Positions 8,752 to 37,801 of a stretch of 64,000 nucleotides of DNA are shown one piece after another (the first letter of the stretch is position 1; each line of letters opens with the position of its first letter). The DNA lies in assembly GCA_017404935.1 (NCBI GenBank), contig JAFRBI010000006.1, positions 32,379 through 96,378 on the forward strand, written 5' to 3'. Source of the DNA: Candidatus Saccharimonadota bacterium. Lineage in GTDB: Bacteria > Patescibacteriota > Saccharimonadia > Saccharimonadales > Saccharimonadaceae. Below the pieces are notes generated by a model that did not search any database, was not told the DNA's origin, and was given only the letters and a program-made list of their open reading frames with translations. Position numbers and translations under genes: made by a program.

Positions 8752-10078
8752 TACTCTCACCCGCAAAGTAGAAAATTTTAAACCAGCTGGTGATACAGTA
8801 AAAATTTATACTTGTGGCCCAACAGTTTATAATTTTCCGCATATTGGTAACTATGCAGCGTATGCTTACTGGGACCTTTTGGTGCGCTGCCTTAAATTAA
8901 ACGGCTACAACGTAAAACGTGTGCTTAATCTTACCGACGTGGGGCACCTTACTTCTGATGCAGATGATGGGGAAGATAAGCTAGAAAAAGGCGCGAGGTT
9001 AGAGGGTAAAACGCCGTTTGAAATTGCTGATTTTTATGCTAAGGTCTATCTCGATAATTACAAGAAGATGGAATTTTTGCCAGCAGATGTGATCGCTAGA
9101 GCTACCGACTATATCCCCGAAGATATGGAAGCGGTAGATTTGATGACTAAAAACGGCTACACTTATGAAACTCGTGACGGTGTGTATTTTGACACCGCTA
9201 AATTCCCAGAATATGCCGATTTTGCTAGGTTAGATTTGGAAGGACTTAAAGCCGGTGCTAGAGTTGGGTTTTCTTCCGAAAAACGTAATGTGTCAGACTT
9301 CGCCGTATGGAAGTTTATTCAGCCAGGTGAAAACCACGCGATGCGTTGGGACTATCTTGGCCGGCCAGGTTATCCAGGCTGGCATCTAGAATGTGCCACG
9401 ATTATTCATAAAGAGCTGGGTGAGTCGATTGATATTCATACTGGCGGGATTGATCATATTCCAATTCATCATACTAATGAAATCGCCGAAACTTACGCTG
9501 CTTACGGCACTAAGTTGTCTAGATTTTGGCTACACTGTGATTTTATTACGATAGATGGTCAAAAAATCTCTAAATCGCTAGGAAACACCTACACTTTGGA
9601 AGATTTAGAATCTCGTGGGTTTTCGCCGATGGATTATAAGATGTGGCTTTTATCTGGGCATTACCAGGGGACGCGAAATTTTACTTTTGAAAGTCTGGAG
9701 GCTGCTAAAAATCGGAGGGCTAACTGGCGCGAGAGAATTGCTCTTTGCTATCAAAAGCCGGTTGAAAGCGATGAAGGGAATTTTGCTAAAGTGTTAGAGG
9801 CCGTTAATAATAATCTTAATTCGGCTGAAGCGTGCGCGATTATTGATAACTGTGCCTTGTCACTTGATGATTGGCGGAAGATAGATGAGCTATTTGGACT
9901 GCGGTTAATTTCTGACACCCCTGATGTGTCTGACGAGGTTTATAATTTGATCCACGAAAGAGATGTGGCGAGAGCTAGCAAAGATTTTGCTATGTCTGAC
10001 AAAATTCGTGATGAACTCTTAAAGCAGGGAATCGCGCTATCAGACACGCCGGATGGGGCGATGTGGTATTATAATTAA
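8738..10078 (+). CDS. cysS: cysteine--tRNA ligase
   Basis: CGPTVY, HIGN, PGWHLEC, GGIDH, KISKSLGN. Confidence 0.97.
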   Translation: MKLYNTLTRKVENFKPAGDTVKIYTCGPTVYNFPHIGNYAAYAYWDLLVRCLKLNGYNVKRVLNLTDVGHLTSDADDGEDKLEKGARLEGKTPFEIADFYAKVYLDNYKKMEFLPADVIARATDYIPEDMEAVDLMTKNGYTYETRDGVYFDTAKFPEYADFARLDLEGLKAGARVGFSSEKRNVSDFAVWKFIQPGENHAMRWDYLGRPGYPGWHLECATIIHKELGESIDIHTGGIDHIPIHHTNEIAETYAAYGTKLSRFWLHCDFITIDGQKISKSLGNTYTLEDLESRGFSPMDYKMWLLSGHYQGTRNFTFESLEAAKNRRANWRERIALCYQKPVESDEGNFAKVLEAVNNNLNSAEACAIIDNCALSLDDWRKIDELFGLRLISDTPDVSDEVYNLIHERDVARASKDFAMSDKIRDELLKQGIALSDTPDGAMWYYN

Positions 10079-11412
10079 ACCTCAAGAAAACAACGGATAA
10101 CTGTCCCCTTTGAACGATACAAATAATTTGAAAAATTCGTAAAATTAATTCCTCTGGTATCCAGTATTGTTACTTCCTGCTGAGCATGAGAAGAGCGAGT
10201 GGAAGAAAATATATATGCGCCAGTCCCAGTTGGGCTATCGGCATAGGCATAGTTTCCAAGGGATAATTTTTGCTGAAAAGTAGGACCGCTATTGCTATAC
10301 GAGGCGTATAAATGATAATATTCTGTACTAGCATTATTTGCTAGAGTCGGTATTCTCCATCCAATTGGGCAAATATCATATGGCGAATCTAGATATGTGT
10401 CTGGGGTATCAACAGCGGCACCAGAAGGATAACAATATGAGCCCGCGGAGGCCGCGCAATAATTATAGAAAACCCCAATCAACCCACTGCCGGCACCGTA
10501 ATTGGCGCTACTTAGAACATTCTTATAACCCGTCCTGATTCTGGGTTCAGTATATTGCTCCGACCAAGTATTATTGACGGCAGAAGTAGCGTATGGACTC
10601 GAACACCCACCATTAATCAAGCATTCCAGTGCTTCGGCGGTAGAATTAGTGTTTGACGGAGAAAGGCTAGCCTGGACATCTGAATCCGTTAAATCCAATC
10701 TCATGTTGTCTAGCATCCAGCAATTTCCATCAGCCAATCTAGCAACCTTATAGACTTCATCATCCCGTATATCTGGCAACTCTACTATATCCTCTATATT
10801 CATAGCAGAGCAGTCGGAGGCAGTAAAAGTTTGCATGTATTTTATCAGTGGGTTAGCCGTAGTAGTAAACACCAGCGTAGTCTTATAAGTTCCAGAAGCT
10901 TGTAGATAGTCTATTTTGGAGGCAAAGGATAGTGTAGTAGTATCATCATTGGCATAGGTATCACTTTCTAGAATGGTAGTATTAGTAGCAAATGGTATAT
11001 AGCTTCCTGAATCCTTCTTGTAACCCCAATGGTTAGCTGGGAAGTCTGATGGTGAAGAATAGCTTCCAGAAGCTAGGGTTGGAATAGTTAGAGTATTGTC
11101 TGTAGTTTCTACTAAGTCTGTATCTCCACTCTGACTAGTTATAATAGTTTTATAGCCAGTAGCGTTATTAGTTCCTACTGTAATAGTAAGGTTATTACTT
11201 CCAGAGTCAGTGGATGATGGATCTAGATTAAGTACTAATGGAGTTGATGGGATAGTGACAGTAAGGCTTGGTTCTATACTGACGTCTGTGGTGATATTCT
11301 CAGATGCGGTTGCGGAATTACTAAAAAACATTAGAAAAATACCTAAAATTGCTACTATATATAATATATAGTGCGATTTTGTTCGGTTTTTTATGGCTTG
11401 TATGACGTTCAT
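10075..11412 (-). CDS. secreted/surface protein with one FISUMP (Fib_succ_major)-like domain
   Basis: N-terminal hydrophobic signal; D.RD..Y.V.RLADGNCWMLDN, YNYCAASAG, ICPIGWRIPT, C-terminal IRC; GAGGT RBS before ATG 11412. Confidence 0.75.
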   Translation of the reverse strand: MNVIQAIKNRTKSHYILYIVAILGIFLMFFSNSATASENITTDVSIEPSLTVTIPSTPLVLNLDPSSTDSGSNNLTITVGTNNATGYKTIITSQSGDTDLVETTDNTLTIPTLASGSYSSPSDFPANHWGYKKDSGSYIPFATNTTILESDTYANDDTTTLSFASKIDYLQASGTYKTTLVFTTTANPLIKYMQTFTASDCSAMNIEDIVELPDIRDDEVYKVARLADGNCWMLDNMRLDLTDSDVQASLSPSNTNSTAEALECLINGGCSSPYATSAVNNTWSEQYTEPRIRTGYKNVLSSANYGAGSGLIGVFYNYCAASAGSYCYPSGAAVDTPDTYLDSPYDICPIGWRIPTLANNASTEYYHLYASYSNSGPTFQQKLSLGNYAYADSPTGTGAYIFSSTRSSHAQQEVTILDTRGINFTNFSNYLYRSKGTVIRCFLEV

Positions 11413-11447
11413 TTGGTACCTCACTTTATTAACCTTCGGCACCAAGT

Positions 11448-11583
11448 AAAAATCGACACCGTAGGCTTCGACAACCAAACACACTTAGTAGCATAACGCT
11501 CAAAGGCATTCAGTACCTAACGGTGCCGATTTTTGCCTTCGAGAATTATATTCCTAAACAAAAATGTGCGTTTGATTGTCGAA
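11448..11583 (-). promoter_or_regulatory. structured 5' leader, copy 1 (stem AAAAATCGGCACCG/CGGTGTCGATTTTT plus upstream antisense box)
   Basis: Inverted repeats read directly; same architecture at 54718-54878. Confidence 0.7.
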
Positions 11584-35740: not shown

Positions 35741-37667
35741 CTATTTGGCGATGCAACGGATTTGACAGCCGTCATAACTTTGGGCGCTGCCGTATCTCAA
35801 ACTAGTGCCACTTGGATTATACAGAACTCCTCTATAACTAGTGCTCAAAGTTGAGGCCCACCAATATGCCCCATCGTTAATTAGCGCTCCTCCGCGATAG
35901 TATCCATTGCCACCGTTCTGGATGAAGTTACTGCCATAGGAGGTTACTTGGTTTATCTCTGTCTGGCTCGCAAGGCGCCAACCAGATGGACAGATATCGC
36001 TTACTGATACAGTCGTGTTGTCGCCGATAGTGCCTGCAGAAGTTGCTCGGAAATTATACCACGCACCATAAGTAGATGAACATTCTATCCTCGGATCATC
36101 TGTACTATTTCCAAGCGTAAGATTATTAGTTGGAGTAGACCAGCTGGCGGTAGAGATGTTGGAATCGGAACTGGTGAGAGTTTTGCTGGTAATAGTAGAG
36201 CCGTAGGCGGAGCCGGTACCGTTACAACCAATGGCGAGGTTTCTGGTCATCCAGACGTTGCCGTTAATTTTGGCAATGGTGTAGTCTTGGCCGTCGCGAG
36301 AATCTTTCAATGTGGCGGTGTCACCATCGTTCATTTTGGCGGCAATCTGCGGACTTATTTCCTGCATGGTGGTGATGTCGGAAATGGTGCGAGGGTCATT
36401 AAGGATGCAGCGAATAGAGGTGCCGGATCCCCTACCAATATAATTATCAGGATAGACAGTCCCATTGGGAGATAAATATAACCCGCCCCAAACGGTGGTA
36501 GCAGCCGTGTTTTCAGAGCTCCAATAAAAACCGTATGTCCCTGAATTAGTTATTGATGTCCCGCTTGGAGAATAGCCTGGTCTAGCAAAGGCTGCGCCAC
36601 CATTCGCAATAGGCTTTGTCATATTAGTGTATGAATTATATTGATTATAAAGTCTAGTATACTCACTGGAAGTGCCTACACTCGTAGGTAATCTCCACCC
36701 AGCTGGGCAAATATCATCTGTAGCTTTTGCGGTAGTAGAACCACATCTTGTGCTACCTGATGCCGCACAAAAATTATAGAGAACACCGTTCGGCGTCTGT
36801 GAAACTGAATCTATGCCAGAAACTACCACATATCTTTCTTCGCCTGATCCACTACCGTTTTTCCAGCTATTAAAACTGGAGGCGGAGATAGGGGTGGAAA
36901 GATTGGTATTATTAGATGTAAGATCTGTGGCAAGTTCTACTGCGCCGAGATTGAGATTCGTCATCATCCAACAGTTACCATCGGCAAGGCGTTGGATGAT
37001 ATATTCTTGGTTGTCCCTTTTATCTATTACTGTCATTGGTGTAGTGGTGCAAAGAGCTGGGTCTAGGTCTTGCATGTAGTTTACTAGCGGATTCGCCACA
37101 ATATTAAACTGAAGAGTAGTATTATAGGCTCCAGCTGGTTGGAGATAGTCTATTTTGGAAGCAAAGCTAAGTTCTGCTTGGTCTTGGTTTACGGCAGTAT
37201 CTCTTTCCATCAAAGTGTTACCAGAATCAAATGGAACAAAGCCAGTTGTAACGGTTGATGGTATTGCTGTATTTGAATTAATACTATACCCCCATTTATT
37301 AGCAGTAAAGGTAGATTCTGTATAAGTGCCAGTATCAAGAGTTGGAATGGTAGCAGAAATAGCAGTAGTATCACTAGTAGTATCTCTTTCTAGGTCTGTA
37401 TTATCATTTGGAGTAGACAGAGTTAGTTTGTAGCCAGTCTTATTATTAGTACCTACACTTACATTTAGGTTTTTAGAATCAAAAATTTTAGATGATGGGT
37501 CTAGATTTAAAACTAGGGAGCTAGTAGGAATAGTGAGAGTAAGGCTTGGTTCTATGGTGACAGAATAATCTACATCAACTGCGGTTGCACCCCCCCCCCA
37601 TTAATAGGGCGAAGGGTACGTAAAAGAATAAGTTTTTCCAAGAATTATTACGCACAACCTTAAACAT
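35741..37667 (-). pseudogene. two-domain FISUMP-like surface protein, frameshifted at a G10 tract in the signal-peptide region
   Basis: ATG 37667 (MFKVVRNNSWKNLFFYVPFALLMGGG) reads out of frame at C10 37590-37599; the downstream frame GATAVDVDYSVTIEPSL... is open to 35741 and homologous to the other two paralogs. Confidence 0.8.
37590..37599 (-). repeat. G10 homopolymer (candidate slipped-strand switch)
   Basis: C x10 on the + strand; 9 or 12 G restores the frame. Confidence 0.8.
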
Positions 37668-37717
37668 AACCTTATTATAACACAAAAAATAAAAATGCAA
37701 GACTTTTTTAAAAAGTC

Positions 37718-37746
37718 TTGTAATTTTTAAAAATCTGCGCTATAAT
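37718..37746 (+). promoter_or_regulatory. sigma70-type promoter of secE-nusG
   Basis: TTGTAA-17 bp-TATAAT. Confidence 0.75.
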
Positions 37747-37801
37747 ATTGACAAGTCTGGTATCAGACTTTTTTTAAGCAATATTATTAGTAAAGGAGTT
37801 T

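Follow-up and report, generated by a model that had tools for sequence, protein, structure and literature searches.

A G10 tract in the signal-peptide codons of a Saccharibacteria FISUMP protein: a candidate slipped-strand phase-variation switch

Introduction

The pilC1 and pilC2 genes of Neisseria gonorrhoeae and N. meningitidis, which appear to be the closest known case to the gene described here, reportedly carry a poly-G tract in the region that codes for the signal peptide (an observation attributed to Jonsson et al., 1991). In the opa family of Neisseria, the signal-peptide-coding region contains CTCTT repeats, and most copies are OFF at any time. Homopolymers also act as switches from within a promoter spacer, as in the fim genes of Bordetella and the porA and opc genes of Neisseria. 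Finally, Campylobacter jejuni has poly-G/C contingency loci (PMC8437040, PMC5380846, PMC13317227). A literature search found no paper linking simple-repeat phase variation, homopolymeric tracts or contingency loci to Saccharibacteria, Patescibacteria or the Candidate Phyla Radiation (CPR). As far as we found, this type of switch, long known in pathogens, is apparently undescribed for Saccharibacteria and other CPR bacteria.

We analyzed a stretch of 64,000 nucleotides (the window) from a draft genome of Candidatus Saccharimonadota, in which a run of ten Gs separates a signal-peptide-like sequence from a long open frame. As in pilC, an exported adhesin-type protein has a G homopolymer within its signal-peptide codons, a change of one G would toggle translation, the variable residues would leave with the signal peptide, and the tract is found on more than one paralog. 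The differences are that the organism belongs to the CPR/Patescibacteria and has a genome of ~0.74 Mb, that its protein, with FISUMP lectin-like domains behind a beta-sandwich, bears no relation to the pilC products, and that the tract is part of a conserved, apparently portable cassette with an apparently leaderless start; moreover, switching is here predicted from sequence. The likeness to opa is that of a multi-copy surface family with a slippery repeat in the signal-peptide codons of each copy and hence combinatorial surface variation. However, the opa repeat is a pentamer and the Opa proteins are outer-membrane beta-barrels, whereas here the repeat is a homopolymer that heads two cassette genes, and up to eight in relatives. 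With C. jejuni, the organism shares a small AT-rich genome in which rare G/C runs of ~8-11 are concentrated in surface-structure genes, tract lengths that differ between otherwise identical isolates, and an association with the gut. The differences are that the C. jejuni tracts are mostly inside genes for surface-modifying enzymes and not in a shared signal-peptide cassette, and mutation rates were measured there, in contrast to our reading of sequence only.

We propose that the G10 run is probably a slipped-strand phase-variation switch (contingency locus) of a secreted FISUMP protein, caught in its OFF state. What the locus appears to add is length polymorphism within the same strain at sister cassette loci, together with a strong signal of selection on an OFF gene. 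Saccharibacteria, like other members of the CPR, live attached to bacteria of other kinds, which they have to choose and hold as hosts with genomes of ~0.7 Mb. If our proposal is true, a random on/off switch on a secreted lectin-like family would give a population variability in attachment, or in exposure to phage or immunity, without the need for regulators.

Results

The G10 tract and the start of the gene

The features at the start of the gene, and the body that follows, are:

37674..37682, minus strand: extended -10 promoter element TGTTATAAT, read from the sequence, with putative promoter activity
37580..37667, minus strand: signal-peptide coding region in its ON (G9) reading, MFKVVRNNSWKNLFFYVPFALLMGGGATA, with predicted cleavage after A-T-A
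37590..37599, minus strand: G10 homopolymer (C10 on the plus strand), the proposed switch, read from the sequence
37575..37577, minus strand: TGA closing the 30-codon OFF peptide (...MGGGCNRS, then stop), read from the sequence
35741..37589, minus strand: gene body (mature protein and stop codon), which only G9 or G12 would put in frame with the start

The start ATG (37667-37665, minus strand) lies downstream of TGTTATAAT after a 6-nt spacer, AAGGTT, a spacing that would imply a leaderless or near-leaderless mRNA. The same TGnTATAAT-N6-ATG layout is kept in all copies of the cassette, as seen in an alignment of the cassettes. A sigma-70 scan did not call a promoter for this gene, and there is no canonical -35 element at 16-18 nt; our putative promoter is called from the conserved extended -10 by itself. 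The arrangement of TGnTATAAT, exactly 6 nt and ATG also precedes several genes for secreted proteins (window 37668-37682; genome C3:85186-85205 and the C5:77129 region), and its recurrence suggests that this organism uses leaderless mRNAs. Farther upstream, between the -10 element and the divergent secE gene, there are two A/T-rich palindromes, CAAGACTTTTTAAAAAAGTCTTG (window 37698-37720) and AAGTCTGGTATCAGACTT (window 37753-37770), which could serve as a bidirectional terminator or an operator.

There are 21 codons between the start ATG and the ATG-G9. The first G of the run is the G of this in-frame ATG (37601-37599), and the run occupies codons 23-26 of the frame that begins at the start ATG. 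It is followed by TGC AAC CGC AGT TGA (minus strand), and the translation of the G10 frame, MFKVVRNNSWKNLFFYVPFALLMGGGCNRS, ends at this TGA. In contrast, the +1 frame runs on beyond the tract for 617 codons, counted from 37594, up to a stop codon at 35743-35741. A run of G9 or G12 would join the signal peptide to this 617-codon frame, whereas G8, G10 and G11 leave the two out of frame. The 617-codon frame has no ATG, GTG or TTG upstream of a TTG at 37213, that is, in its first 127 codons, and because the body lacks an alternative start over this distance, the G10 state cannot yield an exported protein. An earlier note on this DNA had placed the G10 run at 37590-37599, the ATG 6 nt after TGTTATAAT and the stop after CNRS, and had held that G9 or G12 would fuse the signal peptide to a frame of ~615 codons; the sequence bears out each of these points, with 617 as the exact length.

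In the ON reading, the sequence is that of a typical Sec signal peptide, with a basic n-region, a hydrophobic core, glycine helix-breakers (Gly-Gly-Gly) and an AXA motif, and cleavage would be expected after A-T-A. The mature N-terminus predicted in this way, VDVDYSVTIEPSL, aligns with the mature starts of paralogs that have ordinary signal peptides. Across the aligned cassettes, the base 3' of the G run is T or C, a difference that is synonymous in the ON frame (GGT or GGC) and that specifies Cys or Arg in the OFF frame.

The protein encoded beyond the tract

The long frame scored above the curated cut-offs of PF09603 (Fib_succ_major; 62.2 bits versus 33.9) and TIGR02145 (81.7 bits versus 41.65), with two matching stretches for each model. 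The AlphaFold model of the whole protein is confident (pLDDT of 88; 79 for the N-terminal domain modeled alone) and places a beta-sandwich at the N-terminus, ahead of the two FISUMP domains:

37085..37552, minus strand: N-terminal beta-sandwich domain, approximately residues 15-170 of the frame, from the AlphaFold model
36404..36979, minus strand: first FISUMP domain, the best PF09603 stretch, residues 206-397
35744..36313, minus strand: second FISUMP domain, matched by TIGR02145 from residue 428 on in two stretches

The RCIAK at the C-terminus of the second FISUMP domain is conserved and common to the homologues, and homologues of the long frame are annotated as Candidatus Saccharibacteria. 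A protein search with residues 1-40 of the fused precursor gave no matches, and a sequence search of the PDB with the protein returned noise only.

The N-terminal domain resembles pilins, weakly. The Pam-pilin-C model NF058581 matched it over model positions 16-147 of 148 with 22.4 bits (E 1e-4) against a cut-off of 55, and the best Foldseek matches of the whole protein and of this domain (CfaB, CsuE, PapA, TasA and CanA) were likewise weak, with E values of 0.001-0.09 and TM scores of at most 0.48. CfaB, CsuE and PapA are donor-strand (chaperone-usher) pilins. With the NF058581 score below its cut-off and the fold matches weak, we do not claim membership in the Pam pilins. Pam pili were recently described in a Saccharimonadia parasite (bioRxiv 10.64898/2026.03.03.709456). 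We infer a surface location or an adhesin role for the FISUMP protein, and a pilus-associated adhesin role is no more than a lead.

Elsewhere in the genome, a 325-residue protein (C5:76155-77129, minus strand) has the same N-terminal beta-sandwich. It also has a linker rich in Ser and Thr and, at the C-terminus, a hydrophobic anchor whose tail reads KRRKDDDDEE. The gene has the same leaderless-type promoter, and the protein was without a match in NCBIfam.

Long G/C runs and FISUMP paralogs in the genome

The draft genome comprises 740 kb in 11 contigs, with 41% G+C. It contains 46 G/C runs of 6 nt, six of 7, one of 8 and none of 9, an approximately 6-fold drop for each added base. Nevertheless, there are three runs of 10 or more, compared to 0.04 expected (Poisson P ~1e-5), and the G10 tract exceeds what chance would produce.

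The earlier note had described the long frame as FISUMP and homologous to other paralogs, as confirmed by the PF09603 and TIGR02145 matches and by the ~18 paralogous loci that the frame matches in this genome. It had also pointed to these paralogs as places to look for poly-G at the same position. One other paralog does carry it: the second G10 run, at contig C3:85270-85279, lies in the same codon of another FISUMP gene, within a near-identical stretch of 50 nt. This gene is likewise out of frame, reading MLRSKHNLIAKILFFSVPFALLMGGG followed by RNRI and a stop. The remaining FISUMP paralogs lack a G run, have signal peptides of a different kind and are preceded by Shine-Dalgarno leaders; they use a long conserved leader with GTGAGGT.

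The third run is a G11 at C5:110737-110747 (locus L048). It makes up most of the 17 nt between the two elements of a perfect TTGACA-N17-TATAAT promoter. Downstream are a gene for a 240-residue GNAT acetyltransferase and then a PTA_PTB gene. In other assemblies that encode an identical downstream protein, the tract was G11 in three and G10 in one, and an NCBI contig has its start within the run. This tract is a candidate for phase variation of promoter strength. It resembles the fim, porA and opc switches in that G11 sets the TTGACA-TATAAT spacing at 17 nt and a length of G10 is found in another assembly. Unlike its counterparts there, it lies outside the window and would control an acetyltransferase gene and not the FISUMP gene.

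Loss of mismatch repair raises slippage at homopolymers. Searches of the genome, which is 98.8% complete, for MutS_V and MutL (DNA_mis_repair) gave no match, while 11 of the 14 control genomes were matched.

The cassette in relatives and the variation of its tract

We scanned for the cassette with the pattern TTAAT-G8+-GCAACCGCA and found it in two further Saccharibacteria MAGs, with eight loci in one (seven G10 and one G11) and six in the other (four G10 and two G9). Many of these copies sit at contig ends. More generally, contig ends of the window's MAG and of the related ones fall inside FISUMP genes or right after the cassette. The same pattern also matched a Bradymonadales MAG (L015, identical to L028), which was discarded as a chance match. 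Exact-pattern scans of metagenome and genome contig collections with a lineage-specific 20-mer found nothing, and cassette scans of species representatives, 400 from the family and 80 from the genus, matched only the window's own genome. Because it is otherwise absent from these representatives, the cassette is a feature of a narrow lineage.

Tract length differs between assemblies of the same cassette locus. At the MscL-adjacent (mscL) locus, the ortholog of the C3 cassette gene, nine assemblies from different samples had G9 (two), G10 (four) and G11 (three); their downstream flanks agreed without mismatch over 1750 nt, and their upstream flanks had one mismatch at most over 400 nt. Six assemblies of a locus that lies between tmk and an ABC transporter gene and is absent from the window's genome had identical flanks and a tract of G9 (two) or G10 (four), and a third locus, in a more distant species, had G9 twice, G10 four times and, to judge from a protein, G11 once. 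Thus, at three sister loci the tract differs between assemblies that have 0-1 mismatches over flanks of ~2.1 kb. There was one further locus with G8. Complete precursors, such as MLRSKHNLIAKILFFSVPFALLMGGGATASE... (P0125, P0130, P0120), can be read from the G9 copies, and clusters at 90% identity contain complete and shortened gene calls alike. Altogether, 44 readings of the tract across cassette loci comprised 30 of G10, eight of G9, five of G11 and one of G8, a sample biased towards OFF because shortened gene calls were looked up. Gene callers shorten the cassette genes to forms of 489, 559, 567 or 675 residues or pick the wrong ATG, and the family is mis-annotated in MAG catalogues for this reason.

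The unit of promoter, start, signal peptide and poly-G looks portable, because a cassette of the C3 type stands before a body like that of the studied gene at a cysS locus (L006), and because a body at least 90% identical occurs with an ordinary signal peptide in a 643-residue protein of the same 90% cluster (P0122). We had considered this protein as an ON allele of the studied locus and rejected it, since its signal peptide is different and without poly-G; it shows a swap of the 5' module and not switching. The cysS-adjacent paralog has a Shine-Dalgarno-type leader in the window's genome and a poly-G cassette in L006. FISUMP bodies and 5' modules are also shuffled between strains at other places (window 10075-11484, minus strand; window ~21857; L006, L008, L039-L044).

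The main rival to a DNA-level switch is programmed recoding, in which G10 would be the working state and the full-length protein would be made without a change in the DNA, either by RNA polymerase dropping one G or by a +1 shift of the ribosome on GGG GGG GGG U. Such recoding would account for G10 being the commonest length at almost every cassette locus and the length in all eight assemblies of the studied locus, even though the body is strongly selected, and a run of identical Gs lets tRNA-Gly re-pair in the +1 frame. However, the G9 copies encode an intact precursor directly, and otherwise identical strains also have copies with G8 or G11, so no single shift would suit all of them. A conserved stimulator is not evident, and the 0-frame codon after the run varies (UGC or CGC). 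To our knowledge, transcriptional slippage in bacteria occurs at A/T runs rather than at G runs. We consider recoding unlikely, and it is not exclusive of switching in the DNA, with which it is compatible.

Selection on the out-of-frame body

We compared the 617-codon frame of the window with that of a sister strain (L003). There were 93.5 synonymous and 42.5 non-synonymous differences (dS 0.25, dN/dS 0.12), with no stop codon and no indel. For the first 127 codons, which are readable only through the tract, dN/dS was 0.10. In neutral simulations with an equal number of substitutions, 99.2% broke the frame and 0.8% stayed open. The second cassette gene, on C3, had a dN/dS of 0.21 in comparison with its ortholog. 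These values indicate that the body of the FISUMP gene is under purifying selection and not decaying, despite its OFF state.

A recently inactivated pseudogene, in which the tract is merely the site of a fixed lesion, would also be out of frame in all eight assemblies of the studied locus, and some cassette copies in a related MAG are followed by short frames of 34 and 101 codons (L014, L017). Yet two lineages separated by a dS of 0.25 both keep the 617 codons open, which few of the neutral simulations did, and the same lesion is found at the same codon of the second paralog and of many paralogs elsewhere, a recurrence that is not expected from independent decay. The earlier note had named a uniform G10 with further decay as the outcome that would speak against phase variation, and the decay did not appear. 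We regard a fixed frameshift as very improbable.

Recurrence of G10 at the studied locus

G10 was also present in seven other assemblies of the locus, six of which are itemized here. Three are of the same strain and are identical over 1840 nt downstream (ENA ERZ28655055 and the Logan assemblies SRR12529039 and SRR12529046; L029, L030 and L031). The other three are of a sister strain that is 94.5% identical over 7.4 kb (NCBI GCA_017432105.1, ENA ERZ28654478 and ERZ28654653; L003-L005). There was no length other than G10 among all assemblies of the locus (four same-strain and three sister-strain assemblies itemized, counting the window), although these are a small sample, apparently all from one study, and give tract lengths as an assembly consensus, in which mixtures within a population are not visible. 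In these assemblies, the gene callers shorten the gene to 489 residues.

A homopolymer error, with a true length of G9 and an intact gene, was a doubt raised in the earlier note. Indel errors usually fall in homopolymers, and the draft genome is in 11 contigs. However, assemblies from ENA and NCBI and two per-run Logan assemblies gave G10 independently of each other, in the same strain and the sister strain, and the same pipelines give G8, G9 and G11 elsewhere and hence have no systematic +1 bias, so that we give this explanation almost no weight. The recurrence indicates that G10 at the studied locus is not an assembly error.

Discussion

The earlier note's reading of the tract as a phase-variation switch gains support from the reproducibility of G10, from the selection on the body and from the presence in relatives of cassettes with G8, G9, G10 and G11, also between otherwise identical assemblies. 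For the studied tract itself, we infer switching from the behavior of the sister cassette loci.

Under slipped-strand phase variation, the extended -10 promoter would direct transcription from ATG 37667, giving an mRNA with little or no leader. Gly-Gly-Gly ahead of the A-T-A cleavage site would come from the G run, and changes of three Gs would alter only the peptide that is removed; because cleavage would discard the residues that the run encodes, only the frame should matter. With G9 (or G12), the whole 640-residue precursor would be made and exported, and with G10, translation would end after 30 codons and there would be no exported protein. Slippage at the run during replication should be frequent and reversible, because no MutS/MutL mismatch repair is detectable, and each population would then hold both ON and OFF cells. 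An OFF consensus at every locus fits a family in which only a minority of cells express any one gene, and it also fits G10 being a mutational mode. Since the same 5' cassette heads two paralogs here and as many as eight in related genomes, the lineage may be able to vary its set of surface lectin-like proteins.

We also consider a wider possibility, which we hold more tentatively, at somewhat less than even confidence: that these genes form a multi-gene contingency system, the first seen in the CPR, in gut or rumen Saccharibacteria. In such a system, a portable cassette would have been recombined onto two to eight paralogs per genome that combine a pilin-like domain with lectin-like (FISUMP) domains. 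The modal G10 is one step from ON (G9), and each gene would be OFF in the majority of cells and ON in the rest. Combined with poly-G tracts in promoters, such a system would provide combinatorial variation of the surface exposed to host cells or phage in an episymbiont of ~0.7 Mb that lacks mismatch repair. The same strain is present in many public samples.

There are also G-rich sequences of a different make-up in the genome. Two intergenic regions, at C10:45656-45670 and C8:20770-20784, share TTTAGCATAAGC followed by G5-6, T and G6-8 just upstream of promoters, and one of the two precedes another FISUMP paralog. These regions may represent a further kind of G-rich switch or operator.
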